Both the position numbers and the translations under genes were made by a program. Below are positions 1,052-46,469 of a DNA stretch of 64,000 bases, in pieces. Under the pieces are notes generated by a model that was given only the letters and a program-made list of their open reading frames with translations, did no database searches and had not been told where the DNA came from. This DNA is from Dehalococcoidia bacterium (lineage in GTDB: Bacteria > Chloroflexota > Dehalococcoidia > Lucifugimonadales > UBA2985). The stretch spans positions 428,902 through 492,901 of the forward strand of contig OZ242025.1 in assembly GCA_965204895.1 (NCBI GenBank), given 5' to 3'. Each line of letters starts with the position of its first letter. The stretch's first letter is position 1.

Positions 1052-1126
1052 ACTCGTTCCTTAGCTAAACCATTTCGCTTCATGGCTCAGGAGTATAGCA
1101 GAGATTTACCGAAAAAGATTCCTTAA

Positions 1127-1795
1127 CTACTGCCCTCGGAGCAGGTTGTTCTTCACCAGGTACATGGCCCTCTCCGTCTCAACGACGTCGTCGGGAAGGA
1201 TGTTGGCTCCGCCAAGCATGGAAGACCAGACGAAAATCTGGGCCGCCCTCTCAACAAGCTCGCACACGCCAAGGGCCTGCTCCGGCGTCGCGCCCACGCC
1301 CAGAAGTCCGTGGTTCCTGAGTATCACCGCGCCCCGGTCCTCCAGCGCGATGCACGCCTTCTCCGCAAGCTCCTCGCTGCCGGGGAAGCCGTAGTCCGCC
1401 ACCCTCACCGCGCCTCCAACGGCAACCACCAGCTCGTCTATCACGGGCGGCAGGTCAAGGCCAGCCACCGCCAGAACCGACGCGTAGACGGAGTGGGTGT
1501 GCACAACTGCGCCGACGTCGCTCCTGGCCCTGTACACGCCCACGTGGGTCAGCGTCTCCGTGGAGGGTATCAGTTCACCCTCTACAAGGTCTCCCGCAAA
1601 GTCCACCGCCACAAGGTCTTCACTTTTCATCCGGTCGTAGGGCTGTTGCGATGGCGTTATCAGCAGCAGGCCGTCGCCGCCGTCGCGCTCCAGGCACATA
1701 CTGACGTTGCCACTGGCGCCCGCCACAAGGCCGCCGGAGGCCATTCGCTGCGCCGCGCTCAGCAGCGTCTCACGCTCCGCATTCCACGCGCTCAT
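1127..1795 (-). CDS. class II aldolase/adducin-family protein (FucA/AraD-like)
   Basis: ORF 1127..1894 trimmed to the ATG at 1795 (MSAWNAERE...). GNVS and HTHSVYAS motifs of the class II aldolase fold. The ATG overlaps the hpnE stop as ATGA (1792-1795). Confidence 0.75.
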   Translation of the reverse strand: MSAWNAERETLLSAAQRMASGGLVAGASGNVSMCLERDGGDGLLLITPSQQPYDRMKSEDLVAVDFAGDLVEGELIPSTETLTHVGVYRARSDVGAVVHTHSVYASVLAVAGLDLPPVIDELVVAVGGAVRVADYGFPGSEELAEKACIALEDRGAVILRNHGLLGVGATPEQALGVCELVERAAQIFVWSSMLGGANILPDDVVETERAMYLVKNNLLRGQ

Positions 1796-3162
1796 AGCGG
1801 GCCTGCCCCCTCTCTCCGGGCCACCGCCTGGGCGGCCGTCCGGCCGCTGCGCACGGCCCCCTCCATTGTGCCCGGCCAGCCTGTATCCACCCACTCTCCA
1901 GCCAGAAACAGGTTGGAGATGGGCGTCGCGCTGGGCAGCCGGTGCGCCTCCACGCCGGGCAGGGAGCGGAAGGTGGCGTTGAGTTGCTTGACTATCATCA
2001 GGCGCTCAACCCTGGCGTCACGCGCCCTGGGGAAGACCCGCCTCATCTCATCCAGGAACATCTCCCGTATCTCCTGCTTGGGCATGTCCGCGTACCGCCA
2101 CGCGCCGCTGAGGGATATGCACAGGTACTGGCCCGAATCGTCACCATCGCCGCGCATACGCGTCTTGTTGAACACCCACTGCAAGGGGCTGTCCACAAAG
2201 CCGCAGAAGGCCTCGTCCATCACCGGGCGGTCGTACCAGATGTGGACGTCCACGATGGGCGAGTACGACAGGCCGTTAGCGCGGGCGAAGAAGCCGTCTT
2301 CTGCCAGGTTCGGCGGGAGCATCGCCGTGAGGTCGTACGATGGCAGCGCCGAGACGTACCAGTCGCCTTTGACGACGCCCGCAGAGGTCTGCACGCCGCA
2401 CACCCTGTCGCCGTCCACGGTGATCTCCCTGGCCCCGGCGCCCATCAGCGTCTCCCCTCCCCTGGCCGCCAGGTAGGACTTGACCGCCTCCGAGACCAGC
2501 TCCGAGAGGCCAACCTTCGCATACCCGATTGCAGCGCTGGCCCTGGACTTCAGCACCCCCTCCTGGAAGACCATCAGCCCCATGTCGGCGCTCACCTCCG
2601 ATATGTCGTCGTTCAGGGTGGGCAGGATGATGAGGTTCCAGAACCTGTCTATGGCCGAGTCCGTCTGGCGGTGGCGCTTCAGCCAGCCGGCGAAGGTCTC
2701 CCCTGCCCGGCCTCCACCTTTGGTCATGGAGATTCGTAGACCCCCGTAAAGCGCCCGGAGCTTCTCGCCCCACGACAGATGGGGATAGCTCAGCAGCGAG
2801 GGCAGCAGGTGAAGGGGCGCGGGAAGGCCGACGCTGCGGAGGACTCCCCTCTTTCCGCCGTTGCCAAGGACGGGAACGTCCAGCCTTGGAGGGATATGGG
2901 TGTTGTGCAGGACTCCCAGCCTCCCTAGAAAGTCCATGTAGGCCGTGCAGCAGCCAAGGAAGACGTGCTGGCCGTTGTCTATCTCCTGGTCGGTGTCGGG
3001 GTCAGGGAAGGAGAAGGCCCGGCCGCCCAGGAACGGCCTCTTCTCCATCAGCGTCACCGGGTGGCCGCGGTCGGCGAGATCGCAGGCGGCGGCCATTCCA
3101 GCCAGCCCACCGCCGATAACGACTACCTTCCCGAGGCCCTGGCCGCTATCCCGTTCGCCCAT
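1792..3162 (-). CDS. hpnE: hydroxysqualene dehydroxylase (FAD-dependent amine-oxidase/phytoene-desaturase family)
   Basis: FAD-binding motif VVVIGGGLAGMAAACDLADRGHPVTLMEKRPFLGGR. Sits after hpnC-hpnD. Start set at ATG 3162 (MGERDSG...); the track start at 3288 is an upstream extension overlapping hpnD. Confidence 0.75.
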   Translation of the reverse strand: MGERDSGQGLGKVVVIGGGLAGMAAACDLADRGHPVTLMEKRPFLGGRAFSFPDPDTDQEIDNGQHVFLGCCTAYMDFLGRLGVLHNTHIPPRLDVPVLGNGGKRGVLRSVGLPAPLHLLPSLLSYPHLSWGEKLRALYGGLRISMTKGGGRAGETFAGWLKRHRQTDSAIDRFWNLIILPTLNDDISEVSADMGLMVFQEGVLKSRASAAIGYAKVGLSELVSEAVKSYLAARGGETLMGAGAREITVDGDRVCGVQTSAGVVKGDWYVSALPSYDLTAMLPPNLAEDGFFARANGLSYSPIVDVHIWYDRPVMDEAFCGFVDSPLQWVFNKTRMRGDGDDSGQYLCISLSGAWRYADMPKQEIREMFLDEMRRVFPRARDARVERLMIVKQLNATFRSLPGVEAHRLPSATPISNLFLAGEWVDTGWPGTMEGAVRSGRTAAQAVARREGAGPL

Positions 3163-3995
3163 AGCCTCGCCATAAGCACCAGCTTCTCCCCGGTGCTGAG
3201 ACTCACCCTCTTGCCGAACACGTTGTAGCCGGACGCCTCTATGCGGTCCAGCAGCCGGCTGTATGTCCCGTGAAGCACGGCGGGGCACGCCCTTGACCGG
3301 GGCGACAGCAGAGGCAGAAGCCGTTTGCCATTCCTGAAGTACTCACGGGCCCGCTCCACCTGGAACCTCATCAGGTCTCTGAAGTTGTCGTTCACCCTTC
3401 CCTGGAATATGTCCTCCTCGGAGCAGCCAAAGCGGGCAAGCTCCTCCTGTGGAATGTACACTCTGTCCCGCTCCATATCCTCCTCCACGTCCCGGAGGAT
3501 GTTGGTCAGCTGCATTGCCAGCCCCAGGTCAACCGCGTGCTCCCTGGCGTCCGGGTCGTCATAACCGAATATCTCTATGCAGACCAGCCCCACCGAAGAA
3601 GCCACGCGGTAGCAGTACTCCCTCAGCTCCTCGAAGGTGGCGTACCGCGTTTTGGAGATGTCCATCTCGACGCCGTTAATCACCTCTTCAAGGTACTCCA
3701 TCGGGATGCCGTAGGTGTCGATGGCGTCCTGAAGCGCAACGTACACCTGTCCCTCCGGTCGGCCTGCGCCCGCGCCTGCAAGCAGCGCCCGTTGCTCGGC
3801 CACCAGGCGCAGCTTCTCCTCAACCTCTGTGTAGTCGTCCGTGGCGTCGTCGCACAGGCGGCAGAAGGCGTAGGCGGCGTAGATCGCCCTGCGCTTCTCG
3901 GCAGGCAGGGTGATGAAGGCGTAGTAGAAGTTCTTGGCGCGCTCCTTGGTGAGCCTGCGACAATACTCGTACGCCTGGTCCAGCTCACTGGCCAT
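3123..3995 (-). CDS. hpnD: presqualene diphosphate synthase (squalene/phytoene synthase family)
   Basis: AKNFYYAFITLPAEKRRAIYAAYAFCRLCDDATDD and NILRDVEEDMERDRVYIP Asp-rich motifs. ATG 3995 is preceded by GGGAG; the track start at 4013 is a GTG. Confidence 0.8.
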   Translation of the reverse strand: MASELDQAYEYCRRLTKERAKNFYYAFITLPAEKRRAIYAAYAFCRLCDDATDDYTEVEEKLRLVAEQRALLAGAGAGRPEGQVYVALQDAIDTYGIPMEYLEEVINGVEMDISKTRYATFEELREYCYRVASSVGLVCIEIFGYDDPDAREHAVDLGLAMQLTNILRDVEEDMERDRVYIPQEELARFGCSEEDIFQGRVNDNFRDLMRFQVERAREYFRNGKRLLPLLSPRSRACPAVLHGTYSRLLDRIEASGYNVFGKRVSLSTGEKLVLMARLWANGIAARASGR

Positions 3996-4023
3996 GAACG
4001 TCTCCCATCCCACGGCGGGATGT

Positions 4024-4911
4024 TCAGATTACTCTCTTCAGCTTCATCCTGGCCGCCGTGCTTGCGACAAGCCGCGCCCTGGACACCTTGGAAAGCGTTG
4101 GGCGGCGACTTAGCACGTCGTAGTTCCGGCGCTCTATTGCCTTCAGTATGTGCAGCCCGCCCAGTGTGAACAGGGCGATGTCCAGCCGCACGACGCCCTT
4201 CACCTTGTCCACCAGCCCTGCGCCCTCGTCGAATAGGCCCCTGGCGCGGTCAACCTGGAACCGCATAAGCTCCCTGAAGGAGTCGTCGGCAACCCCGGTC
4301 TGCAGCTTCTCCTCCGTGTACCCAAAGCGCTCCATGTCCTCCTGTGGAATGTAGACGCGGCCCATGTCCCAATCCCGGCGCACGTCCTGCCAGAAGTTGG
4401 TCAGCTGTAGCGCAGTGCAGGTGGCGTCCGCAAGACGCTGCCGCTCCTCATCCCTGTAACCGAACAGGTACAGGAACAGGTGCCCCACGGGGTTGGCGGA
4501 GTGGTCGCAGTAGTGGAGCAGGTCACCGTAGGTCTCGTGGCGATGCGCACGCTGGTCCATGCGGTTGGCCTCAACCAGCTTCAGGAACGGCTCCCTGGGA
4601 ATGTCGAAGCGGCTTATCGTCTCACGGAGCGCCACGGCGATGGGGTGAGTGGGTGTGGAGTCGTAGCAGCTGCGCAGCTCCTCCTCCCACCGGTCCAGGA
4701 GGCTCAGCCGGTCGCCGGGGGACTCGTCCCCCAGGTCGTCTACGAAGCGGCAGAAGGCGTAGACGGCGTAGACGTGGGGCCGCTTCTCCCTGGGAAGGAA
4801 CCACGAGGCCACGGTGAAGTTCTCGTAGTGAGACTTGGCGAGCTTTCGACAATACTCATACGATTGCTCCACGCTCCACCGGCCGCGAGCGTCCGCAGTG
4901 AGGGACTCCAT
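4024..4911 (-). CDS. hpnC: hydroxysqualene synthase (squalene/phytoene synthase family)
   Basis: YENFTVASWFLPREKRPHVYAVYAFCRFVDDLGDE and QLTNFWQDVRRDWDMGRVYIPQED motifs. First gene of the hpnCDE order. Confidence 0.8.
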   Translation of the reverse strand: MESLTADARGRWSVEQSYEYCRKLAKSHYENFTVASWFLPREKRPHVYAVYAFCRFVDDLGDESPGDRLSLLDRWEEELRSCYDSTPTHPIAVALRETISRFDIPREPFLKLVEANRMDQRAHRHETYGDLLHYCDHSANPVGHLFLYLFGYRDEERQRLADATCTALQLTNFWQDVRRDWDMGRVYIPQEDMERFGYTEEKLQTGVADDSFRELMRFQVDRARGLFDEGAGLVDKVKGVVRLDIALFTLGGLHILKAIERRNYDVLSRRPTLSKVSRARLVASTAARMKLKRVI

Positions 4912-4923
4912 GTGGCGCTTCCG

Positions 4924-5367
4924 TCACTCGCCCAGGATCTGGATCAGGACCTCCCTGGGTCGAGGCATATCCAACTCAATGAGAAAGACCCTCTGCCACC
5001 TGCCCAGCTGAAGCTGGCCGTTCACAATGGGTATGTTCTCGCTGGTGCCGAGCAAAAGATGCTGGCAGTGCGCGTGGCCGTTTGGACACTCGTCCGGGGT
5101 CATGTTCACCGTGCGTATGGAGAAGTCGTTGTGCTGGTAGTGGCCGTTGCGGGAGGCCACCTTCTCCAGGAACTCCGTCATGTCGTTAAGGAGGAGAGGC
5201 TCGTTCTCGTTTATTCTGATAGCAGCGGTGGTGTGCTTGGAGTACACTACGGCGAAGCCGTTTTGCACCTCCGAGTCCTTGACGTACCCGCAAATCCCGT
5301 CCGTGATATCCACGAACTCCGGCGCCTTTGTGGTGTCCATCTTGATACAGTAGGTATTTGCTTTCAT
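4924..5367 (-). CDS. yjbQ: YjbQ/UPF0047 family protein (secondary thiamine-phosphate synthase-type)
   Basis: 147 aa. Family motifs VDITD, HTTAAIRINENE and GHAHCQHLLLG. 12 nt upstream of hpnC. Confidence 0.85.
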   Translation of the reverse strand: MKANTYCIKMDTTKAPEFVDITDGICGYVKDSEVQNGFAVVYSKHTTAAIRINENEPLLLNDMTEFLEKVASRNGHYQHNDFSIRTVNMTPDECPNGHAHCQHLLLGTSENIPIVNGQLQLGRWQRVFLIELDMPRPREVLIQILGE

Positions 5368-5459
5368 TACCCTGTCAGTCTCCTTGCCCTAGCTGGTCTA
5401 CCGCAGCTACAGAATGTTAACCTAGCATAACGATGTATTTTTTGCAACATATTTACCAA

Positions 5460-5487
5460 ATTATGCACGATTCCACACATCTAACAA
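5460..5487 (-). promoter_or_regulatory. candidate sigma-70 promoter for the yjbQ-hpnCDE transcript
   Basis: The minus strand reads TTGTTA-N16-(TGc)ATAAT in the AT-rich gap upstream of yjbQ. Confidence 0.35.
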
Positions 5488-5517
5488 ACCAGTGCAGACC
5501 CTGCGAGGACGCCTCCT

Positions 5518-6567
5518 CTATCGCTCGCGAGTCAGAAGGAACTCCACAAGCTCCTCCATCTCCTCTCGAGCGCGCTCCGTAGTCGATACGCTCTGCAGCG
5601 CCTCCTGCGCCAGGGCGGCCTGCTGCTGGGCCAAACTCTCTACGTACTCCGATACGCCCAGCTGCTCCAGCAGCCCCATCATCGAGGCGACGTCCCGGTC
5701 GTCCACCTCCTCCTTGGCGTAGATGGAATTTATCTGCTCCCTCTCTCCGCTCCCGGCCCTCTCCATCGCATACACCAGGGGCAGCGAGTTCTTCTTCCTG
5801 CGCAGGTCGCTGCCAATCGGCTTGCCCGTCTCCTCTTCACGGCCCCAGATGCCCAGGTAGTCGTCACGTATCTGGAAGGCGAGACCCAGGTACCGGCCGC
5901 ACTGGGACATAGCCTGTACGGTCTCCGCATTTCCGCTGCCCACCAGTGACCCCATGTGCATGGAGCAGCGAATCAGCGCCCCCGTCTTCCGGGCGATCAT
6001 CTCCAGGTAGGCGGCGGTGTCCACGTCCGTCCGCCCCTCGAAGTCCATGTCCAGGTACTGACCCTCTATCATCTCCAGGTAGGCGTCGCTCAGCGCCCGG
6101 CTGCACCCGGTCACCACTTCTGCCGACAGCCTTTCGCCGATGACCCGCTGCACGCCCATGTCCGCCATGACCCGCATGACGTTCCCCGCCTGTAGCGCCT
6201 TGGGCTTGCCCCATACGGCCCACACCGTAGGCCGATGGTGGCGCTGCAGGTCGCCGTCCTGGATGTCGTCGTGGATGAGGGAGAAGTTGTGCACCAGCTC
6301 CAGGGCCGCGGCCGCCGGAAGCGCCTGCTCCGGCAAGCCGCCCACGGCCTCGCAGGCGAACATGCAGAGGGAGGGTCGCAGCCGCTTGCCCTGGCTCAGC
6401 GCAGTGGGCCGCCCGCTCTCATCCACCCGGCCCATGTGGTACCTGAGCATTGTGGACACGTCCGGGTCGTTGGGAGCCAGAAGCGCGTCCAGCGCCTCCT
6501 CAACCCCGTCCAGGTACTTGCGCAGAATGGCTGGGGTGGTGTCTATGCGGTTGCCCTGGGCATTCAC
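5518..6567 (-). CDS. polyprenyl diphosphate synthase (FPP/GGPP synthase family)
   Basis: 349 aa. First and second Asp-rich motifs LIHDDIQD and FQIRDDYLG. Confidence 0.85.
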   Translation of the reverse strand: MNAQGNRIDTTPAILRKYLDGVEEALDALLAPNDPDVSTMLRYHMGRVDESGRPTALSQGKRLRPSLCMFACEAVGGLPEQALPAAAALELVHNFSLIHDDIQDGDLQRHHRPTVWAVWGKPKALQAGNVMRVMADMGVQRVIGERLSAEVVTGCSRALSDAYLEMIEGQYLDMDFEGRTDVDTAAYLEMIARKTGALIRCSMHMGSLVGSGNAETVQAMSQCGRYLGLAFQIRDDYLGIWGREEETGKPIGSDLRRKKNSLPLVYAMERAGSGEREQINSIYAKEEVDDRDVASMMGLLEQLGVSEYVESLAQQQAALAQEALQSVSTTERAREEMEELVEFLLTRER

Positions 6568-6690
6568 CGGCTGCTCCCTTCCGTTTGCCGGAGGCTGCGA
6601 CGCCCTACGCGCCTTACCTCTGAAATCGATGCATCGTGATACGATGTATGTATGCTAACAGAGGGCGTGGCGCGTGTCAAGGATGGGATT

Positions 6691-6753
6691 TCATGTCATG
6701 CCGAGCGAGGCATCCAGGCGGGGATGTGGACTCCTGCCTGCGCAGGAGTGGTC
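6691..6753. repeat. REP-like hairpin pair
   Basis: Hairpins atgcc-gagcga-ggcat (6698-6713) and actcctgc-ctgc-gcaggagt (6730-6749). The second matches the attcctgc..gcaggaat family seen at 23472, 54362 and 60989. Confidence 0.6.
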
Positions 6754-6759
6754 GGTAGG

Positions 6760-7995
6760 CTACCCGCCCTCCGCCTCCTCCCCAATGAGGCGCTCTGCGT
6801 AGCCCATGAGCGCCTCTGCCCTCTCCGCCGGCACTTTCGCCGTCTCCAGGTACAGGCGCAGAGCCTCCTGCGGCGACAGCCCCTCCACCCTCGCCGCCCC
6901 CAGCCGCGTGCGACGCTCCCTGGTCACCTCCCGTACTATGGGCGCAACGTAGCGGGCCTCCGACAGCGCAGCCCGCACCTCGCTCTCCCGCAGCTGCGCC
7001 TCCACCTCCTGGGGCATGGTTATCCGCACTCTGACTATCGCGCCCTCGACGTGGCTGCGGCCAATGGCCTTGAGCGCCTCTTCCGTCGGGTCTTCGTCGG
7101 CATCGACCGCCACCTCTATCGTGAGGAAGCGGCGGGCGTTGACGTGCTGAAACCGGAAGTCGACGAGACGCCGGCCCCGGGGCGCGGACGCGTCCAGGTC
7201 GATGACGCAGAAGCCCTTGTCGTCGCCCTCTTCGCCAAAGTCGATGCGCTCCAGGCTGCCGGGGTAGACCACGTGCGGGTTGGTGGAGAGAACCTGGTGC
7301 CTGTGGATGTGGCCCAGGGCAACGTAGTCCAGCTCAGGGCGGGCAAGGGCGCTCTGCATGATGACGGGGTCACGGCCCAGGAGCATGGACTGCTCCGAGC
7401 TTGTGCGGGCGGTGTTCAGGGAGACGTGGGCTGTCAGGACCGCAGGCGCGGCGGGGTCAAGGCTCTCTATCTGCCAGGCCAGCAGCGTTGTGACCCGCTC
7501 CTCAAGCTGCCGGTTAATCTCCTCGATGGTGAGGCTGCGGGTCTCCTCCCTGGCCAGGAAGGCGCTGCGCATTATCCAGGGCAGGGCGACTATCTGCACC
7601 GGGCCGGCGGCGGTGTGCACCACGTAGGTGTCCAGCCTGTCGCCGATGGTGACGTTGGGGACGGAGAGCGTTGGGAAGATGTCCAGGGCCGTAGCGCGGC
7701 TGGCGATGTGGGGCAGGTCGTGGTTGCCCACCAGCAGGAAGACGGGCACGCCCTCCCGGGAGAGGCGGGCTATGCGCCTGGCGAACTCCCTCTGGTGGGT
7801 CTGCGACGGGTCGCGGCTCTTGTAGGCGTCGCCGGCAAATAGGACAAGGTCTACGGCGTTGTCCAGGGCGAAGTCCACCACCTCGTCGAAGGTGGACAGG
7901 AAGTCCATTAGCCGGGCGCTGAGGCCCGTCGACGGGTCGGTAGAGCCGTAGCTCTCGACGCCTATGTGAACGTCCGCGAAGTGCAGAATGCGCAT
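6760..7995 (-). CDS. sbcD: exonuclease SbcCD subunit D (Mre11-type metallophosphoesterase)
   Basis: MRILHFADVHIG..., GDAYK and LLVGNHD phosphoesterase motifs. ATG 7995 with GGGAGG 10 nt upstream; the track start at 8013 overlaps hicA. Confidence 0.8.
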   Translation of the reverse strand: MRILHFADVHIGVESYGSTDPSTGLSARLMDFLSTFDEVVDFALDNAVDLVLFAGDAYKSRDPSQTHQREFARRIARLSREGVPVFLLVGNHDLPHIASRATALDIFPTLSVPNVTIGDRLDTYVVHTAAGPVQIVALPWIMRSAFLAREETRSLTIEEINRQLEERVTTLLAWQIESLDPAAPAVLTAHVSLNTARTSSEQSMLLGRDPVIMQSALARPELDYVALGHIHRHQVLSTNPHVVYPGSLERIDFGEEGDDKGFCVIDLDASAPRGRRLVDFRFQHVNARRFLTIEVAVDADEDPTEEALKAIGRSHVEGAIVRVRITMPQEVEAQLRESEVRAALSEARYVAPIVREVTRERRTRLGAARVEGLSPQEALRLYLETAKVPAERAEALMGYAERLIGEEAEGG

Positions 7996-7997
7996 GG

Positions 7998-8216
7998 CTA
8001 CAGCGCCTCCCACTCCTCCCGGCTGATGCCGGCCTCTCGGAGTATTCGTGTCAAGAATTCCCTACTTATATCACCTCGGTGGGGATTGGGAATCCACACA
8101 CGCCTTTGACCTCGCTGCATATATTGGTGGCGTCCGCCCGGAAATGGGCCTTCAAAGCCTGCGCGTCGGAGGGCGGCAATGAGGTCTGGCCTGGATATTG
8201 GGCCAACGCGCGGCAA
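7998..8216 (-). CDS. hicA: HicA-family toxin (YcfA-like mRNA interferase), copy 1
   Basis: 72 aa; ISRPDLIAALRRAGFEGPFPGGRHQYM...IPNPHRGDISREFLTRILREAGIS matches the HicA pattern. Directly follows hicB, and its stop is 2 nt from the sbcD ATG. Confidence 0.8.
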   Translation of the reverse strand: MPRVGPISRPDLIAALRRAGFEGPFPGGRHQYMQRGQRRVWIPNPHRGDISREFLTRILREAGISREEWEAL

Positions 8217-8459
8217 CTAGGCAGTTACCTTAACGTTGATATCAAGGCCGTCTACAACTGGAACGTCGAAGCCGCGGGAGATAGAGAAGAGCAGCCACTC
8301 ATCCAGAACATCTTCCAACTCAGCGCGGCACTCTTCAAGGGTATCTGCATTGTAGTAGACACCATCAAAACCCGGTATCCTCCCGAAAAAGGAGCCGTCA
8401 TCACTCAGGATTTCGTATTCAGCCTTGGCCATTGCCGCGGCGATGTATTCTCTTACCAT
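8217..8459 (-). CDS. hicB: HicB-family antitoxin (a-type), copy 1
   Basis: 80 aa. MVREYIAAAMAKAEYEILSDDGSFFGRIPGFDGV...TLEECRAELEDVLDEWL is the typical short HicB/UPF0150 pattern. Abuts hicA with no gap. Confidence 0.8.
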   Translation of the reverse strand: MVREYIAAAMAKAEYEILSDDGSFFGRIPGFDGVYYNADTLEECRAELEDVLDEWLLFSISRGFDVPVVDGLDINVKVTA

Positions 8460-8526
8460 GGCTTTCCTCCTCAGTGCAATGCTATCCGGCAGGCGGCGGC
8501 TGTGTACAGCGAGGTTGGAGCGGCGG

Positions 8527-8784
8527 TCAGTCCTCTATGTCTTCTATGGCTTCACCGAACTTAAGATCCAAGCCGTCAAGGACAGGCACGTCTATGCCAC
8601 TGTATACTCGGAAGAGCGCCCAATGCTCCAGAACCTCCTCCAGCGTATTGCGGCACTCCGCAAGCGTCTTGGCGCTGGCCTGTACGCCCTCGAAGCCGGG
8701 GATCTCACCATAGTAGGAGCCATCCTCCGGGAGCGTCTTGTACTCTGCCCTCCTCATGGCTGCGTCCAGGTATTCTCGGATCAT
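8527..8784 (-). CDS. HicB-like protein (b-type paralogue), copy 1
   Basis: ORF 8527..8943 trimmed to the ATG at 8784 (MIREYLDAAMRRAEYKTLPEDGSYYGEIPGFEGV...). Own TACAAT and GGAGG upstream. Confidence 0.75.
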   Translation of the reverse strand: MIREYLDAAMRRAEYKTLPEDGSYYGEIPGFEGVQASAKTLAECRNTLEEVLEHWALFRVYSGIDVPVLDGLDLKFGEAIEDIED

Positions 8785-8827
8785 GGTGTGCCTCCGGGGG
8801 TCATTGTACCGCGAGCACCTACGGACT

Positions 8828-8980
8828 ACCAGTTGAAGTGGAGTTCTATCCCGTCGCCGTCCCAGGGCAATGACTCCACCCACGCCCATACCTCCGAGGT
8901 TTGCTGAGGCCCGTCGACGGGTCGGTGGAGCCGTAGCTCTCAACGCCTATGTGAACGTCAGCGAAGTGCAGAATGCACAT
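8828..8980 (-). pseudogene. duplication scar: first 26 codons of sbcD fused to the last ~23 codons of the 95-aa gene
   Basis: 8903-8982 is 76/80 nt identical to 7918-7997, including the ATG. 8828-8902 translates in another frame to SEVWAWVESLPWDGDGIELHFNW*, compared with the C-terminus of ORF 9775..10062. Confidence 0.75.
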
Positions 8981-8982
8981 GG

Positions 8983-9201
8983 CTACAGCGCCTCCCACTC
9001 CTCCCGGCTGATGCCGGCTTCTCTGAGGACGTCCGCCAACAGCTCTCTTCCTATATCACCTCGGTGGGGGTTGGGAATCCGGACACGCCTTTGGCCTTTA
9101 ATCATGACTTGGTGGCGTCCAGCCGGAAATGGGCCGTCAAAGCCTGCGCGCCGGAGGGCCGCGATAAGACGTCGCCTGGATATGGGGCCAAAGCGCGGCA
9201 A
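8983..9201 (-). CDS. hicA: HicA-family toxin, copy 2
   Basis: 72 aa, 58/72 identical to copy 1 by hand count. Confidence 0.8.
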   Translation of the reverse strand: MPRFGPISRRRLIAALRRAGFDGPFPAGRHQVMIKGQRRVRIPNPHRGDIGRELLADVLREAGISREEWEAL

Positions 9202-9444
9202 CTAGGCAGTTACCCTGATATTGATATCAATGCCATCCACGACGGGAACGTCTAAGTTGCGGGAGATGGAGAAGAGCAACCACACCTCAAGAACCTCCTC
9301 CAGTTCAGTGCGGCACTCCTCAAGCGTGTCGTTGTTGGCCCACACTCCCTGGAAGCCTGGTATCCTGCCGAAAAAAGAGCCGTCTTCCTCATAGATCTTG
9401 TACTCCGCCTTGGCCATTGCCGCGGATATGTACTCTCGTATCAT
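9202..9444 (-). CDS. hicB: HicB-family antitoxin (a-type), copy 2
   Basis: ORF 9202..9531 trimmed to the ATG at 9444 (MIREYISAAMAKAEYKIYEEDGSFFGRIPGF...). 61/80 identical to copy 1. TACAAT and GGAGG upstream. Confidence 0.8.
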   Translation of the reverse strand: MIREYISAAMAKAEYKIYEEDGSFFGRIPGFQGVWANNDTLEECRTELEEVLEVWLLFSISRNLDVPVVDGIDINIRVTA

Positions 9445-9487
9445 TGCCCACCTCCGGCGCTTATTGTACCACGCTGGCGGCGGCGCG

Positions 9488-9736
9488 CTAATCGTCCACC
9501 GCTTCCCCGAACTTGAGATCCATGCCGTCAAGGACAGGCACGTCTATGCCGCGGTATACTCGGAGGAGAGCCCAATGCTCCAGAACCTCCTCCAGCGTAT
9601 TGCGGCACTCCGCAAGAGTCTTGGCGCTGGCCTGTACGCCCTCAAAACCGGGAATCTCGCCATAGAAGGAGCCGTCCTCCGGGAGGGTCTTGTACTGCGC
9701 CCTAGCCATTGCCGCGTCAAGGTATTCTCGGATCAT
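9488..9736 (-). CDS. HicB-like protein (b-type paralogue), copy 2
   Basis: 82 aa, about 90% identical to 8527..8784. TACAAT -10 upstream at about 9757-9762. Confidence 0.75.
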   Translation of the reverse strand: MIREYLDAAMARAQYKTLPEDGSFYGEIPGFEGVQASAKTLAECRNTLEEVLEHWALLRVYRGIDVPVLDGMDLKFGEAVDD

Positions 9737-9774
9737 GGTGTGCCTCCGGGGATAATTGTACCGCGTGAGAGCGG

Positions 9775-10062
9775 CTACCAGTTGAAATGCAACTCTATTT
9801 CATCCCCGTCCCAAGGCAGAGACTCCACCCAAGCCCAAATCTCCAACGTCTGTTCGTCGGTCAAGTTCTGGTTGTCTGCAAACTCGTATAGCAAATGACC
9901 TATGTGGGGCTTGGTGAAGTGTCCTAGGCTGTTCCCTTCCCCGCTCATAGTTCCGTAGACGCTGGCCTCGTGGGCCAACTCCTTAGCGAATTCATATTTG
10001 ATGCCGCGTGGGAGTTCCACGGGCTGAATGCTCATAATCCCGATGCGCAGGCTCATTGCCAC
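9775..10062 (-). CDS. hypothetical small protein (no family recognised)
   Basis: 95-aa ORF 90 nt downstream of the AIPR gene. A conserved C-terminal fragment recurs in the scar at 8828-8902. The start may be the internal ATG (MSIQPVEL...). Confidence 0.5.
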   Translation of the reverse strand: MAMSLRIGIMSIQPVELPRGIKYEFAKELAHEASVYGTMSGEGNSLGHFTKPHIGHLLYEFADNQNLTDEQTLEIWAWVESLPWDGDEIELHFNW

Positions 10063-23343: not shown

Positions 23344-23492
23344 AACCGCTCGCTCCCTTCGACATTGCTCAGGGCGAGCGGTTTCTTGTTCTATCCGCTC
23401 ATAGCCTGCCCCGTACCCCGATACGGGGGCGTTTCTCCAAGGCATCGCAGACTTGCAGACAGAGTTCCTAGATTCCTGCTTCCGCAGGAATG
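23344..23492. repeat. cluster of REP-like hairpins (three types)
   Basis: aaccgctcgc..gcgagcggtt (23344-23383), ccgctcatagcctgccccgtaccccgatacggggg (23395-23431), and attcctgc-ttcc-gcaggaat (23472-23491). Confidence 0.65.
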
Positions 23493-40246: not shown

Positions 40247-40304
40247 GGGGTTTCAACTGGGAGTCTGGCGCTCATTTTCAAGAAATAGCCAAGGCGCGTG
40301 CCCC

Positions 40305-40340
40305 CATCCGAACCTTCCCCCGCAAGGCAGGGGAAGGTCA
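40305..40340. repeat. REP-like hairpin (ccttcccc..ggggaagg type)
   Basis: aaccttcccccgcaaggcaggggaaggt. The same type recurs at 42231-42259. Confidence 0.6.
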
Positions 40341-41406: not shown

Positions 41407-42210
41407 ATGCAGCGCACGGATCCCAATGTCTCCACCCGCACACTCATCGGCCAGCTGAACTCCGACATCTCGGAGTACACCCGGGGCTGCGCGGCCCTGG
41501 CCCTGGGCCAGGCCAGGGAGAAGCGCGCCGTGGACGACCTGGTCAAGGCGCTGTCGGACGAGTCCGCCTGGGTGCGAGGCTGGGCCGCATACGCCCTGGG
41601 CGAGATCCGGGAGAACCGCACGCTGAACGCCATCTGCGACGCCCTTGGCGACGATGACCTGTGGGTGCGCCAGCAGGCCGCCGACGCCGTGGTGCGCTTC
41701 GACAGCCACCTGGCCAACAGCGCCCTGCGCAGGGTGCTCCAGGGCGAAAACTCCATGGCAAAGGCGTGGTCGCTCCACGCCATCGCCCAGCGCGGCGACC
41801 CGGATTCGGCCCTTGACGTGGTGGCCTTCCTTGAGGACGGAAGCCGCGCCGTGAGGCTGAGCGCAGTGCGCACCCTCTACCGGCTGGGCCAGACCTCTGC
41901 CGTTGCGCCCGTCAGGATGTTCATGCGCGACCCGGACGAGCACCTGCGGGGCGCGGCCGCCTTCGCCCTTGGCGCGCTGGGAGACCACGAAAGCACTTCC
42001 GCCCTTACACTGGCGCTGACCGACCCCACGCCCTGGGTCAGGCGAAACGCCGCCTGGTCCCTGCTGGAGCTTGGGGAGTCCCTGCGCCTTGTGGCCTCCA
42101 TGATCGATGACACGGACGCTGGCGTGAGGTGCTTCGCGGTCAACGCCCAGGAAATGCTGCGGAAGGCGGAGGAGGCAGGGGAGGCCGAGGGGGTGCCTCA
42201 GTCTGAGTGA
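41407..42210 (+). CDS. HEAT-repeat (PBS-lyase type) protein
   Basis: Reiterated xxVRxxAAxALGxxxD units (VRGWAAYALGEI, VRQQAADAVV, VRLSAVRTL, LRGAAAFALGAL, VRRNAAWSL, VRCFAVNA). Confidence 0.8.
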   Translation: MQRTDPNVSTRTLIGQLNSDISEYTRGCAALALGQAREKRAVDDLVKALSDESAWVRGWAAYALGEIRENRTLNAICDALGDDDLWVRQQAADAVVRFDSHLANSALRRVLQGENSMAKAWSLHAIAQRGDPDSALDVVAFLEDGSRAVRLSAVRTLYRLGQTSAVAPVRMFMRDPDEHLRGAAAFALGALGDHESTSALTLALTDPTPWVRRNAAWSLLELGESLRLVASMIDDTDAGVRCFAVNAQEMLRKAEEAGEAEGVPQSE

Positions 42211-42225
42211 TAGGTCAGTGCCCTC

Positions 42226-42330
42226 ATCCTGACCTTCCCCCGCATGCCGGGGGAAGGGGTTTTGAGACACGGGCTGGCTTCCTCGCTTTTCCCGCTCATA
42301 GCCTGCACCGTACTTGATACGGGGGTGAGC
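42226..42330. repeat. REP-like hairpin cluster
   Basis: ccttcccccgcatgccgggggaagg (42231-42259) and cccgctcatagcctgcaccgtacttgatacggggg (42291-42326). Confidence 0.65.
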
Positions 42331-42364
42331 CCGTCGAACCATGTGAGAGGGGCAACCGCCCCAA

Positions 42365-42388
42365 CTGTAATGCCAGCTGTAATGCCAG
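42365..42388. repeat. perfect 12-nt tandem duplication
   Basis: ctgtaatgccag occurs twice, back to back. Confidence 0.9.
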
Positions 42389-42667
42389 CCCTAGTATCAG
42401 GATAAGGGCGTGCTTCAGAAGGGGATGGTCGTGACATTTGTGCCATCCGGCGCGGACACCATTACAAAAGTTACGAATCCATTAAATCCCTTTCTCCTCC
42501 CAAAGAGTGGACATGTAGATCAAAACGCCAACTCACAGAGATGAGTCACAAGGACGAGGTGCCTTACCAAAGGATTGCCTCTCTCATGGCTAAGCCATAG
42601 TAAATGTGAGATAATAGAAGCCCAACTGACATCTACGTGTGGTCGAAGCCACGTGACAGGAGAAGGC

Positions 42668-43189
42668 ATGGCAGACGTGTTATTTAAAGTAACGGCGCCC
42701 GGTGAAGTGGCAGTGCACGGTGCCGTGCTGCTGGCAGCATATCCAGACGGTAGATACCTCACTGGTCAGACTGGTGAGGACGGCAAATGCCAACTCAACC
42801 TGTACCGTACAGATCAGGAGATGAAGGTATTAATTGCGGCCGAGGGCTATCTACCATTCCATGAGGCCCTTGTACCAGGGAAATCGGAATTCATACCACT
42901 GAAGCTTGAGCCATCTAAGGAGGGTAAGAAGGCGCTTCTCTTCACCAAGAGCGCTGGATATATCCCAGGAATTTCGGGGCGCCTCAATCCACACAAAGAT
43001 GGTTATGTTTACGGTGACAACCTCGCCATCAACGGGCGACTTGCAACACCCGCCGCACATTTTGACATCGGGGAATCCCTCCACTTGGTCGATGTGTACG
43101 GGGTCGAGACAACCATCCGGTTTCTGATAGTTGAAGGACAATTCTCGCTTATTGAGTACACGGAGCCCAAGGCTTATCCAGAGGAATGA
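42668..43189 (+). CDS. hypothetical protein with an N-terminal carboxypeptidase-regulatory-like beta-sandwich pattern
   Basis: ATG 42668 with AGGAGAAGG upstream. VTAPGEVAVHGAVLLAAYPDGRYLTGQTGEDGKCQLNLY...VLIAAEGYLPF. No family recognised for the C-terminal half. Confidence 0.55.
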   Translation: MADVLFKVTAPGEVAVHGAVLLAAYPDGRYLTGQTGEDGKCQLNLYRTDQEMKVLIAAEGYLPFHEALVPGKSEFIPLKLEPSKEGKKALLFTKSAGYIPGISGRLNPHKDGYVYGDNLAINGRLATPAAHFDIGESLHLVDVYGVETTIRFLIVEGQFSLIEYTEPKAYPEE

Positions 43190-43578
43190 ACTTGGCCACG
43201 GCGGAGGAGCATAGAGAGATCAGCATTCAGTTCTTGGATCATGCCGAGGACGAATTACGTAAGGGCGACCTACTTCAAGCCTCCGAGAAAGCATGGGGGG
43301 CAGTCTCACACTTCGTAAACTACGTCGCGCGGCAACGAAACTGGCATCTGGGTTCACACGAGCGGCTGATTGAGAATGCCAACAGACTGATCAGTGAGGA
43401 TCCTGCTCACGCGACCCATAACCGGAGGTTGCTCCGATCAATCGAGGCACTTCACGCTAACTTCTATCAGGCGTTCTTGAACGAGGATTCGGTGAGAGAA
43501 GGCATTGAAGACGCCAAGGAACTCATTAGAACCTTGGAAGACTTGGGCACAGACACAGCAGATGCCCGGGGTGACTAG
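43186..43578 (+). CDS. PaREP1-like / HEPN-superfamily protein
   Basis: 130 aa. RKGDLLQASEKAWGAVSHFV and LLRSIEALHANFYQAFL match the PaREP1 pattern and contain an R-x5-H motif. ATGA overlap with the upstream gene. Confidence 0.6.
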   Translation: MNLATAEEHREISIQFLDHAEDELRKGDLLQASEKAWGAVSHFVNYVARQRNWHLGSHERLIENANRLISEDPAHATHNRRLLRSIEALHANFYQAFLNEDSVREGIEDAKELIRTLEDLGTDTADARGD

Positions 43579-43589
43579 ATTCGGCATAG

Positions 43590-43598
43590 TGATAGAAT
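43590..43598 (+). promoter_or_regulatory. extended -10 element upstream of valS
   Basis: TGaTAGAAT, 52 nt before the valS ATG. Confidence 0.4.
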
Positions 43599-43649
43599 AG
43601 TGGCACAATCGCATCACTAACCCGGTAGTCAAGGCTGGTCCTTACAGAC

Positions 43650-46469
43650 ATGACACAAGCAGAGCAGAGCGCCGCAGACATCCCCAAGGCGTACGACCCC
43701 GCCAGCGTGGAGCAGCGTCTCTACAAGTTCTGGACGGATAGGGGATTCTTCGCGCCCAGGGTAGACCCTGCCAAGGAGCCCTTCACTATCATCATGCCTC
43801 CGCCCAACGTCACGGGAGAGCTGCACCTGGGACACGCCCTCGTCGCCACCCTGGAGGACATCATGACCCGGTGGCACAGGATGAAGGGTGACCCCACCCT
43901 CTGGCTGCCCGGAGCCGACCACGCGGGCATAGCAACCCAGATGGTCGTGGAGCGTTCTCTTGCAGAAGAGGGACTCACCCGGCAGGCGCTGGGACGGGAG
44001 AAGTTCCTGGAGCGCGTGTGGCAGTGGGTCGACCTGTACGGCCACACCATCGACGAGCAGCAGAAGCGGCTTGGGGCCTCCTGTGACTGGAGCCGTCGCC
44101 GGTTCACACTGGACGAAGGGCCCAGCAAGGCGGTGCGCACCACCTTCGCCAACCTCTTCAACAAGGGGCTGATTTACCGGGGCGAGCGCATTATCAACTG
44201 GTGCCCCCGCTGCTCCACCGCCCTGTCCGACCTGGAAGTGCAGCACGTGGAGGAGCAGTCCTTCCTCTACCACATCCGCTACCCCCTTGAGGAGGGCATG
44301 GGCCACGTGACGGTGGCCACCACACGCCCGGAGACCCTTCTGGGCGATACCGGCGTTGCGGTGAACCCCGATGACGAACGATACAGCCACCTGAGCGGAA
44401 AGCGGGTGCTCCTTCCGGTGCTGGACCGCCCTCTGCCGGTGGTGGGGGACGAGGCCGTTGACCTCGAGTTCGGCACCGGCGCGCTGAAGATCACCCCCGG
44501 CCACGATCCGGTGGACTTCGAGGTGGGCCAGCGCCACGGCCTGCCCGTCGTCACCGCCATCAACCTGGACGGCACTATGAACGGCGAGGCCGGCCCCTAC
44601 GAGGGCATGGACCGCTTCGCGTGCCGCGAGGCCATCCTAAGAGACCTGGAGGAGGACGGGCTGCTTGAGGCCATAGAGCCTTACGCCCACTCCGTGGGGC
44701 ACTGCGACCGCTGCTCCGTGGTGGTGGAGCCTCTGGTGAGTAAGCAGTGGTTCGTGAGCGTGGACAGCCTGGCCAAGCCCGCTATGGACGTGGTGCTGGA
44801 CGGGCGCATCAAGATTATCCCGGACAGGTTCGCCAGGGTGTACCTCAACTGGATGGAGAACATAAGGGACTGGTGCATCAGCCGCCAGCTTTGGTGGGGG
44901 CACCGCATCCCGGCCTGGTACTGCCTGGACTGCGCCGGTGACAGCATACAGGTGCTCTTCCCGGAGTCCCTCGCCGCAGAGGGCCTTGCCAGCGGTGCCT
45001 ACAGGAGCCTCAACGAAAATGGTCTCTCCTGGGCCGAGATGGAGGCGAAGTCGAGCCACATCTTCGTCGAGCTGGACGCGTCGCCCATCGTCGGCGTCGA
45101 GCCGCCGGCGGCCTGCCCGTCCTGCGGTGGAAGCGACCTTGTACAGGACCCGGACGTGCTCGACACCTGGTTCTCGTCGGCGCTGTGGCCCCATTCGACC
45201 CTGGGCTGGCCGGACGACGCCGAGGACCTGCGCTACTTCCACCCGACCACGGTGATGGAGACGGGCTATGACATCCTCTTTTTCTGGGTGGCCCGGATGA
45301 TTATGATGGGGCTGGCCAACACGGGCGAGATCCCCTTCCAGTATGTGTACCTTCACGGCCTCATCCGGGACGAGCATGGAGCCAAGATGAGCAAGACCCG
45401 CGGCAACGTCACCGACCCCATCGACGCGCTGGAGGAGTACGGCACGGACGCCCTGCGCTTCACCCTTGTCACGGGCAACACCCCCGGCAACGACATGCGA
45501 ATCAGCGCCGGCAAGCTGGGGGCCAGCCGCAACTTCGTGAACAAGGTGTGGAACGCCGCCAGGTACGTGCTCACCATCATCGACGAGTCGCCTGCGGCCC
45601 AGGGCTGGCAGTCGCCCTCCACCGAGCACAGGCAGGATAGGTGGATCGTCAGTCGCCTGAACCGGGTGGCGTCACGCCTGCAGCGTCACATGGAGGAGTT
45701 CCAGTTCGGGGAGGCCCAAAGGGAGATTCAAGATTTCTTCTGGAACGAGTTCTGTGACTGGTACATCGAGATGGCAAAGCTGAGGCTGCGGGCCGGAGAG
45801 GAGCCCTCTCCCCTGCCCGTCCTCACTCACGTGCTGGAGAAGAGCCTGCGCCTGATGCACCCCTTTGTCCCCTTTGTGACAGAGGAGATTTGGCAGAGCC
45901 TCAAGGAGAGGCTGCCGGAGAAGGACGACCTGCCCGAGTCCATTATGGTCGCTCCCTATCCCGCGCCGGAAGACGACGCCCTTGACCCGGACACCGAGGA
46001 GGAGATTGACCTGTTGACGGGCATCGTGAGGGCCATACGCAACGTGCGGGCGGAGTTCAAGATACCGCCCGGCCAGCCGCTTCAGGCCGTGGTGGAGCTT
46101 TCGGCGTCAAGCGCAGGTCTGGAGGAGGAGGCCCCGGCCATCAGGAGCCTCGCGCGGGCGGAGCCGCTGCTGTTCCAGGTGGAGGGCGCTCCAAGGCCGC
46201 CTGCCGACAAGACCGCCTCCGCCGTTCTGCGCGGCGCTACAGTCCTGATTCCCCTAGAAGGACTGGTGGACACCGACAAGGAGCGCGGCCGGCTGGAGCA
46301 GGAGCTTCAGGAGTGCCTTCAGAACCTGGAGCGGCTGTCCCAGAGGCTGAGCAACACGGAGTTCACGGGCAAAGCGCCCGCGGAAGTTGTTGATAGGGAG
46401 AGGGGCCGTCTTGAGAGCATGGAGGAGCGGAGGGACCGCATCCAGGAGCTTCTGGCGCAGCTGGGGTAG
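43650..46469 (+). CDS. valS: valine--tRNA ligase
   Basis: 939 aa. HLGH and KMSKT class I signatures, a CP1 editing domain, and a C-terminal coiled coil. Confidence 0.95.
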   Translation: MTQAEQSAADIPKAYDPASVEQRLYKFWTDRGFFAPRVDPAKEPFTIIMPPPNVTGELHLGHALVATLEDIMTRWHRMKGDPTLWLPGADHAGIATQMVVERSLAEEGLTRQALGREKFLERVWQWVDLYGHTIDEQQKRLGASCDWSRRRFTLDEGPSKAVRTTFANLFNKGLIYRGERIINWCPRCSTALSDLEVQHVEEQSFLYHIRYPLEEGMGHVTVATTRPETLLGDTGVAVNPDDERYSHLSGKRVLLPVLDRPLPVVGDEAVDLEFGTGALKITPGHDPVDFEVGQRHGLPVVTAINLDGTMNGEAGPYEGMDRFACREAILRDLEEDGLLEAIEPYAHSVGHCDRCSVVVEPLVSKQWFVSVDSLAKPAMDVVLDGRIKIIPDRFARVYLNWMENIRDWCISRQLWWGHRIPAWYCLDCAGDSIQVLFPESLAAEGLASGAYRSLNENGLSWAEMEAKSSHIFVELDASPIVGVEPPAACPSCGGSDLVQDPDVLDTWFSSALWPHSTLGWPDDAEDLRYFHPTTVMETGYDILFFWVARMIMMGLANTGEIPFQYVYLHGLIRDEHGAKMSKTRGNVTDPIDALEEYGTDALRFTLVTGNTPGNDMRISAGKLGASRNFVNKVWNAARYVLTIIDESPAAQGWQSPSTEHRQDRWIVSRLNRVASRLQRHMEEFQFGEAQREIQDFFWNEFCDWYIEMAKLRLRAGEEPSPLPVLTHVLEKSLRLMHPFVPFVTEEIWQSLKERLPEKDDLPESIMVAPYPAPEDDALDPDTEEEIDLLTGIVRAIRNVRAEFKIPPGQPLQAVVELSASSAGLEEEAPAIRSLARAEPLLFQVEGAPRPPADKTASAVLRGATVLIPLEGLVDTDKERGRLEQELQECLQNLERLSQRLSNTEFTGKAPAEVVDRERGRLESMEERRDRIQELLAQLG

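Follow-up and report, generated by a model that had tools for sequence, protein, structure and literature searches.

We analysed a 64,000-nucleotide stretch of DNA (the window) from a Dehalococcoidia bacterium of the Chloroflexota (GenBank assembly GCA_965204895.1, contig OZ242025.1, positions 428,902 to 492,901 of the forward strand), and describe here a pair of small overlapping genes, A and B, at positions 42668 to 43578. Gene A encodes a predicted all-beta protein whose domain has no name in the copies of Pfam, NCBIfam and PADLOC that were searched. Gene B encodes a HEPN protein of the PaREP1 family. The pairing of A with B is obligate, and together with a short leader the two genes form a self-contained, horizontally spreading unit of Chloroflexota. 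Our favoured reading, to which we give an even chance, is that the locus is a conflict module, of either the anti-phage/abortive-infection or the addiction type, in which a sensor or regulator (A) has been split from a HEPN effector (B). The features of the two genes are as follows.

42668..43189, forward strand: gene A, a two-domain all-beta protein of 173 amino acids; proposed sensor/regulatory partner
42668..42922, forward strand: N-terminal domain of A (about residues 1-85), a transthyretin-like/CarboxypepD_reg beta-sandwich and the more variable half
42923..43177, forward strand: C-terminal domain of A (about residues 86-170), a conserved beta domain with the signature TGYIPGxxGRLNPxxD...YxYADNIAINGxxxxP
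43186..43189, forward strand: ATGA stop/start overlap, predicted to couple translation of A and B
43186..43578, forward strand: gene B, a PaREP1-family HEPN protein of 130 amino acids; proposed effector and putative RNase
43435..43455, forward strand: motif R84-S-I-E-A-L-H90 of gene B (R-x5-H), followed by N92-F93-Y94

Both open reading frames (ORFs) were confirmed, that of A starting MADVLFKV, and the ATGA overlap described in an initial annotation of the sequence is present at their junction. The two genes overlap by 4 nt in 24 of 40 intact related loci and are separated by 2 nt in 13, and a GGAGG/GGGGA-like site lies within the 3′ end of A in all 40. Full-length homologues of each protein, 61-87% identical to it, number in the hundreds, and the 195 close homologues of A are equal to it in length. 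Purifying selection acts on both genes: the pairwise ratio of nonsynonymous to synonymous substitution rates (dN/dS) was 0.12-0.20 in A and 0.06-0.14 in B.

The initial annotation had proposed a survey of whether the two genes occur together in other genomes, and they do. A scan based on A of 185,579 species-representative genomes yielded 46 loci, all of them in metagenome-assembled genomes (MAGs) of Chloroflexota/Dehalococcoidia, and B lies directly after A in 44. One of the two loci without B is at a contig edge (L051), and in the other B has been lost (L044). One homologue was also found as an A-B pair in eight metagenome places, and an A of 54% identity in another lineage is again paired with B through a 4-nt overlap. 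Copies of about 50% identity are present in Acidimicrobiaceae MAGs. A metagenome scan based on B gave 80 loci: A lies upstream in all four in which B is at least 72% identical, and none of the 76 in which B is at most 52% identical has an A-like gene.

Several individual loci differ from this arrangement. The locus that has lost B, in a Tepidiformaceae MAG, has an intact A (L044, 5001-5525) followed by thrS on the opposite strand; no other close homologue of A is an orphan. In L045 two extra PaREP1 paralogues of 120 amino acids lie directly downstream of A-B (6085-6447 and 6651-7013), an arrangement that resembles the tandem layout of archaeal PaREP1 genes; one of the paralogues has lost the arginine that corresponds to R84, and its neighbour has neither that arginine nor the histidine. 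One MAG carries the cassette and its flanks twice in nearly identical form, on contigs 2 and 7 (L016 and L052), with a frameshift in one copy of B, and frameshifts in B or A were also seen in L036 and L054. The frameshifted copies may be pseudogenes or long-read assembly errors.

Membership of B in the PaREP1 and HEPN families, which had been proposed from the pattern of residues, was borne out by profile searches. B matched Pfam PaREP1 (PF05942) with an E-value of 1.2e-13 and 51.4 bits (cut-off 24.4) over model positions 2-115 of 115, and passed Pfam HEPN (PF05168) marginally, with 22.7 bits (cut-off 22) and an E-value of 1.2e-4 over positions 1-116 of 117. The Pfam clan that holds HEPN also takes in PaREP1. 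Every one of 341 homologues of B is annotated PF05942, and the nearest solved structure by sequence is a Sulfolobus PaREP1-type protein (2jpu/2q00; E-value 6e-4), a similarity that lends indirect support to a predicted four-helix up-and-down bundle for B. Both PaREP1 signature motifs are present in B, the first as GDLLQASEKAWGA (GDxxQAxEKxWGA) and the second as ALHANFY (LHxNFY), and both are kept in 66 distant metagenomic PaREP1 proteins. Residues Q31, E34, K35, H42, R81, N92 and F93 are identical in all of 120 close homologues, H90 in 119 and R80 in 118. Searches of PADLOC (E≤1), NCBIfam and PHROGs gave nothing for B.

Active HEPN RNases have an Rx4-6H motif with a polar residue after the arginine, and an upstream acidic Ex3[KR] element (Anantharaman et al. 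2013). Comparable features in B are R84-S85-x4-H90 and the upstream E21-x3-R25, the residue after the arginine being serine and not the usual N, D or H. Since R84 varies among relatives, as detailed below, the R-x5-H motif of B is suggestive, a hint of catalysis and not proof of it.

Gene A had no match in Pfam or NCBIfam (both at E≤1), in PADLOC-DB v2 (E≤1) or in PHROGs. The database copies were Pfam with its newest models from 2025, NCBIfam release 20.0 (June 2026) and PADLOC-DB v2 (2023). An AlphaFold model made with an alignment of 75 sequences, including distant relatives, had a mean predicted local distance difference test score (pLDDT) of 94.2 and a predicted template modelling (TM) score of 0.88, and was entirely beta. 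A shallower alignment of 24 close homologues gave a model that was good only for residues 1-90, with residues 97-129 unmodelled. Foldseek matches to the N-terminal 85 residues, with 5aq0, 9hfj and 3e8v, had TM scores of 0.69-0.76 and root-mean-square deviations (rmsd) of 2.7-3.4 Å over 83-87 columns; a TM score of 0.75 was obtained with 5aq0. By this comparison the N-terminal half of the model is a seven-stranded prealbumin-like sandwich, in agreement with the carboxypeptidase-regulatory-like fold that had been predicted for it. PF13620 is present in several homologues of A and in fusion proteins described below; A in the window falls below the Pfam reporting level.

The C-terminal half, previously described as unrecognised, remained so in the profile databases: no Pfam model covers it, and NCBIfam, PADLOC and PHROGs held no match. 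Foldseek matches in the PDB and BFVD were confined to the N-terminal sandwich, and none spanned both domains at low rmsd (TMq at most 0.43). The C-terminal domain is nevertheless the better conserved of the two. The fraction of sequences with the majority residue was 0.88 in the C-terminal half against 0.73 in the N-terminal half for the close family, and 0.54 against 0.36 for the superfamily. Residues G104, R105, L106, N107, P108, D111, Y113, Y115, D117, N118, P128 and D142 are invariant or nearly so across the A superfamily.

To find the A domain in other proteins, a profile of A was searched exhaustively against 1.84 billion cluster representatives (E<1e-3). The search identified 411 proteins, with E-values down to 1e-43, and in most of them the whole domain (positions about 5-166) forms the C-terminal part of a longer protein. 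Among 104 such fusion proteins, Pfam models identified TIR_2 in 17, TIR in 5, CAP12-type TIR in 2 and SEFIR in 2; HATPase_c_4 in 15 and SLFN_AlbA_2 in 9; DUF4143 in 5, and AAA_14, Pkinase and Fic-like_C in 3 each; Caspase and Trypsin_2 in 2 each; and PIN_8, DUF4062, N6_Mtase and pYEATS in 1 each. Extensions on the C-terminal side of the A domain are winged helix-turn-helix (wHTH) or transmembrane, or are without assignment. The PADLOC models that matched these proteins (ThsB, bSEFIR, PDC-S66, PDC-S01, PD-T4-6, mad6 and caspase) covered their effector halves only and never the A domain. The AAA_14-DUF4143 fusions correspond to PADLOC PDC-S01, and the Ser/Thr kinase fusions are PD-T4-6/mad6-like. 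A run against PADLOC, which the initial annotation had also proposed, showed likewise that known defence models cover neither A nor B (E≤1).

The A domain is also found split from its partner in other settings, as a HATPase_c_4 gene followed by A with a 4-nt overlap, and as a Schlafen gene followed by A. One TIR-A gene adjoins an operon of the cyclic oligonucleotide-based antiphage signalling (CBASS) type. Two eLife surveys of conflict systems (PMC7159879, PMC8195603) make no mention of such a domain. Because it is fused to TIR, SEFIR, caspase, trypsin, PIN, Schlafen, kinase, ATPase and transmembrane modules, the A domain is likely to have a sensor or regulatory role. By analogy with these fusion proteins, A would be the sensing or regulatory subunit of the Chloroflexota pair and B its effector.

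Some A-domain proteins have unusual layouts or surroundings. Two tandem A domains behind a kinase, or an A domain at the N-terminus with a predicted transmembrane helix after it, were seen in P0256, P0270 and P0301, and in P0365, P0371, P0375, P0383 and P0390. On a plasmid of Sinorhizobium chiapasense (NZ_CP133151; L144, 30899-47390) a 734-amino-acid 'TIR domain-containing protein' carries an A domain; the island in which it lies has three more TIR genes, along with a UvrD helicase, DUF429 and an AbiEii toxin.

The extent of the conserved DNA was determined by comparing positions 41800-44000 of the window with 54 related loci using blastn. Homology was confined to 42599-43570, with none in the flanks. 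The features of this segment outside the coding sequences are listed below.

42599..43570, forward strand: conserved cassette DNA, comprising a leader/promoter of about 70 nt, gene A and gene B
42607..42615, forward strand: candidate extended -10 element TGaGATAAT (TG at 42607-42608, hexamer GATAAT at 42610-42615), about 53 nt before the start codon of A
42658..42666, forward strand: Shine-Dalgarno-like sequence AGGAGAAGG before gene A, kept as (G)ACAGGAGAAGG in the closest loci

The candidate -10 element recurs as gtGAGATAAT, TGTATAAT or GTAGAAT at the same distance in most loci, and the sequence further upstream differs. It was missed by a generic promoter scan because there is no good -35. 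Judged by this conserved sequence and spacing, TGaGATAAT is probably the cassette's own promoter. A hairpin in the 5′ untranslated region (42636-42655) was considered and rejected: it is not conserved, and RNAalifold gave no pairs across 16 loci.

The composition of the segment also sets it apart. As had been noted from spot counts, its GC content is below that of the surroundings: 0.527 for A and B together, against 0.631 and 0.647 in the two flanks, and in sliding windows 0.49-0.53 across 42350-43700 against 0.64-0.71 on either side. In almost all hosts the cassette is poorer in GC than the DNA on either side of it, at a mean of 0.55 against 0.63 (r = 0.43). None of the 54 related loci shares the neighbours found in the window, and clustering of flanking proteins separated roughly 25-30 contexts among 44 genomes. 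Some contexts are shared within clades, with Peptidase_M19 upstream in nine genomes, DUF3090 in four, and EVE and LexA genes in three.

Recent transfer is clear in one subclade (L013, L016, L017, L019, L020, L021 and L053), where a 1.2-kb segment is 91-96% identical at the nucleotide level between species-level genomes. In this tRNA-linked subclade the flanks are otherwise unrelated between species, and synonymous divergence (dS) is about 0.08-0.13. The cassettes, including that of L052, lie at about 4905-6100 in each locus. In six loci the left end of the cassette is the CCA end of a tRNA gene: Val-tac in L016, L052 and L053, Val-cac in L017, Val-gac in L021 and Lys-ttt in L020. No att-like direct repeats of the tRNA 3′ end were found downstream of the cassette in this subclade, and no recombinase was found there. 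Rfam searches detected only tRNAs, in two cassette loci. After B the subclade has a conserved non-coding tail of about 210 nt, absent from the window, which folds at -52 kcal/mol with three covarying pairs; covariation is not demonstrable for it because the copies are too similar. Upstream of the L053 cassette lies an array of eight tRNA genes (178-4909) with Val(tac) and Arg(gcg) duplicated. IMG/VR contained no relative of A, and the plasmids searched contained no B and a single distant TIR-A protein.

The immediate surroundings of the cassette in the window are as follows. Downstream, valS starts at 43650. Upstream, a HEAT-repeat-like gene ends at 42210 and is followed by elements resembling repetitive extragenic palindromic (REP) sequences. 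The repeat at 42218-42257, which contains a hairpin CCTTCCCCCG/CGGGGGAAGG, is 85% identical to 40298-40337, and that at 42279-42313 is 80% identical to 23382-23416, so that the earlier description of a REP cluster upstream of the module is a fair label. The stretch 42295-42329 also matches L016 (8751-8779) and L030 (9282-9316) at 91-93% identity. These elements (42218-42257 and 42279-42329) lie outside the conserved cassette, and recur both in the window and in other Dehalococcoidia genomes. Between them and the cassette promoter is a low-GC spacer (42400-42598, about 0.49), which has no homology among the 54 related loci and no convincing ORF. Elsewhere in the window, positions 7918-9852 contain large direct repeats of the families D1, D2 and D5, imperfect copies 274-300 nt long that are 65-89% identical, which suggests tandem paralogous genes or a gene for a repeat protein.

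Comparison with described systems places B within a known family. B shares with PaREP1/PaREP8 (PF05942) the profile match, the GDxxQAxEKxWGA and LHxNFY motifs and the nearest structure, 2jpu/2q00. The described family is archaeal, biased towards thermophiles, often in tandem arrays, without the arginine and with no known partner; in contrast, B is bacterial (Chloroflexota) and single-copy, has an arginine at position H-6 in 93% of members, and always has A upstream. B thus appears from its sequence to depart from described PaREP1 in distribution, not in fold or profile.

HEPN toxins are also known from HEPN-MNT systems, in which the partner is a minimal nucleotidyltransferase (MNT). The resemblance to these lies in a small HEPN protein with an Rx4-6H-type motif, a compact two-gene operon and a mobile character. 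Gene A, however, does not encode such an enzyme: its product has no Pfam match and no nucleotidyltransferase profile match, and its model is all-beta, as expected from the earlier proposal of a different kind of partner. No nucleotidyltransferase gene adjoins the pair in the window or in the related loci. Since A has neither the profile nor the fold, neutralisation of the AMPylation type cannot apply. The pair likewise resembles classical type II toxin-antitoxin (TA) modules in being a compact, mobile two-gene unit with variable contexts, but A has no helix-turn-helix, ribbon-helix-helix or AbrB domain and no disordered tail, its model being a compact beta fold (pLDDT 94). With no nucleotidyltransferase and no DNA-binding antitoxin, the pair is therefore neither HEPN-MNT nor a canonical type II TA module.

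In layout the pair also has parallels among effectors with a modular sensor domain. In pSlfn5, a recent experimental precedent for a beta-sandwich sensor that governs an RNase, a C-terminal Ig-like beta-sandwich binds the T5 tail assembly chaperone and switches on an N-terminal Schlafen tRNase (PMC13056530), and Shedu-type nucleases with variable sensors can be likened to the present pair in the same way. Here, in contrast to pSlfn5, the two parts would be separate genes and the effector a HEPN protein, and the second domain of A is its most conserved part whereas the sensor of pSlfn5 is fast-evolving. The TIR, SEFIR, kinase, AAA_14-DUF4143 and caspase proteins described above have the same two-part A domain, with the invariant GRLNP...YxYADNIAING core. 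They differ in that A is covalently joined to the effector, and none has a HEPN or PaREP1 domain.

On the favoured reading the pair would work as follows. Translational coupling would produce A and B in fixed proportion, and A, by analogy with the fusion proteins, would bind B and control it. The variable sandwich of A, the invariant polar patch of its C-terminal domain, or both, would recognise a cue, which might be a component of an invader or a small ligand. Recognition would switch the effector on, so that the pair would act by activation on sensing and not by plain neutralisation. B would probably be a metal-independent endoribonuclease using H90, with R84 and/or R81 contributing. The A-B pair would then be the split counterpart of the single-chain proteins, present in many other bacteria, that join an effector to an A domain. 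This reading of the locus as a defence or TA module gains support from the A-domain effector fusions and from the mobility of the cassette, and the architecture argues for a sensor or regulator over a classical labile antitoxin.

Several observations weigh against it. Conservation within A is strongest in the C-terminal half, as would suit recognition of a conserved ligand or partner more than the sensing of phage proteins by a fast-evolving domain, and sequence conservation is unusually high for an arms-race gene. Directly beside the cassette lie housekeeping genes and not defence islands, so there is no defence-island argument for the Chloroflexota loci. For these reasons the cue is as likely to be a conserved ligand, or a conserved surface of the host or partner, as it is to be a variable protein of a phage. 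There is one copy of the cassette per genome, as in the window. No match to the B profile, and hence no HEPN-A fusion, was found among 150 A-domain representatives. The searched literature contains no experiment on any PaREP1 protein. The RSIEALH sequence of B had been put forward as an Rx4-6H RNase motif; the motif is there, and R84 and H90 are mostly kept, but R84 is replaced in 8 of the 120 close homologues (kept in 112; seven L, one S), and in the 66 distant PaREP1 proteins the position is occupied by R, S, H, L and others. PaREP1/8 proteins were placed in the HEPN-T clade with the remark that the group 'lacks R but H is conserved' (Anantharaman et al. 2013). Because R84 varies in both the close and the wider family, canonical HEPN catalysis by B is uncertain.

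If B were a HEPN toxin and A a proteic antitoxin that sequesters or occludes it, the module would be a classical addiction system whose loss kills the cell, with no invader sensed. The compact operon, with the putative neutraliser upstream, a 4-nt overlap and its own candidate promoter, would suit such a system, as would the variable contexts, atypical GC content and recent transfer between species, and Makarova (2013) explicitly left room for a toxin role of PaREP1 proteins, 'using a still unidentified antitoxin'; the literature describes these proteins as not linked to MNT. On the other hand A has no DNA-binding domain for autoregulation and is a well-folded beta protein of 173 amino acids, neither labile nor disordered; hundreds of proteins join its domain covalently to effectors, which is the layout of a sensor or regulator and not of a degradable antidote; and there is a single copy per genome. 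We regard simple addiction as the main rival, though an unlikely one. The roles might instead be reversed, with the C-terminal domain of A as the harmful or enzymatic part and the PaREP1 protein as its regulator or adaptor. The invariant polar cluster R105, N107, D111, Y113, Y115, D117, N118 and D142 is a candidate catalytic or ligand site, some A-domain proteins have only a wHTH or ATPase and no obvious effector, and HEPN was once proposed in the literature as the antitoxin of MNT-HEPN. However, the usual fusion partners of the A domain are already effectors, and since most of them are well known (TIR, caspase, trypsin, PIN, Schlafen) a second effector in A is unnecessary; nor does A match any enzyme fold by Foldseek in the PDB or BFVD. 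To our knowledge, HEPN proteins have proved to be toxic RNases wherever they have been tested (HEPN-MNT, Cas13, Csm6), which also counts against a reversal. We consider it quite improbable.

A role outside conflict, in RNA or tRNA metabolism or in a stress response, would make B a processing RNase or a non-catalytic four-helix module that binds nucleotides or proteins, as in the KNTase_C clan. Strong purifying selection and the single copy per genome are consistent with this, as is the dispensability of the motif arginine in relatives. The cassette also has tRNA-related neighbours: valS in the window, thrS in L044, tilS in L001-L008 and tRNA genes in six loci. But tRNA genes are common landing sites of mobile DNA, and adjacency to them therefore proves little. 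The distribution is patchy, with 46 of 185,579 species representatives and the approximately 50%-identical Acidimicrobiaceae copies, the contexts vary between clades, recent horizontal transfer is clear, and immune-type effectors make up the overwhelming majority of what the A domain is fused to. A housekeeping role of this kind seems to us rather improbable. Lastly, the genes might have been chance ORFs or decaying pseudogenes in a low-GC spacer, for which the atypical GC content is the sole argument. This is refuted by homologues at 61-87% identity, dN/dS of 0.06-0.2, the Pfam match and a confident model, and we give it practically no weight.

Publications from 2009-2013 onwards have noted PaREP1 proteins as members of HEPN without an MNT partner. 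Now that a strictly conserved partner has been found, the question of what partners PaREP1 is directly testable with two small genes of about 1 kb and their own candidate promoter. More tentatively, and with somewhat less than even confidence, we suggest that the A domain is a widespread and so far unnamed module of prokaryotic immunity, with a sensor or regulatory role, serving at least a dozen effector types, of which the Chloroflexota cassette would be the split PaREP1 HEPN form. On this more tentative reading A would be the first conserved partner for the long-orphan PaREP1 family, and the pair a new HEPN-based defence system spreading as a 1-kb promoter-bearing cassette. Characterisation of the A domain, which is joined to many validated classes of effector, could reveal a new switch for bacterial immune effectors, and would make it possible to annotate fusions with TIR, Schlafen, caspase and kinase domains that are now listed as 'hypothetical' by the hundred.

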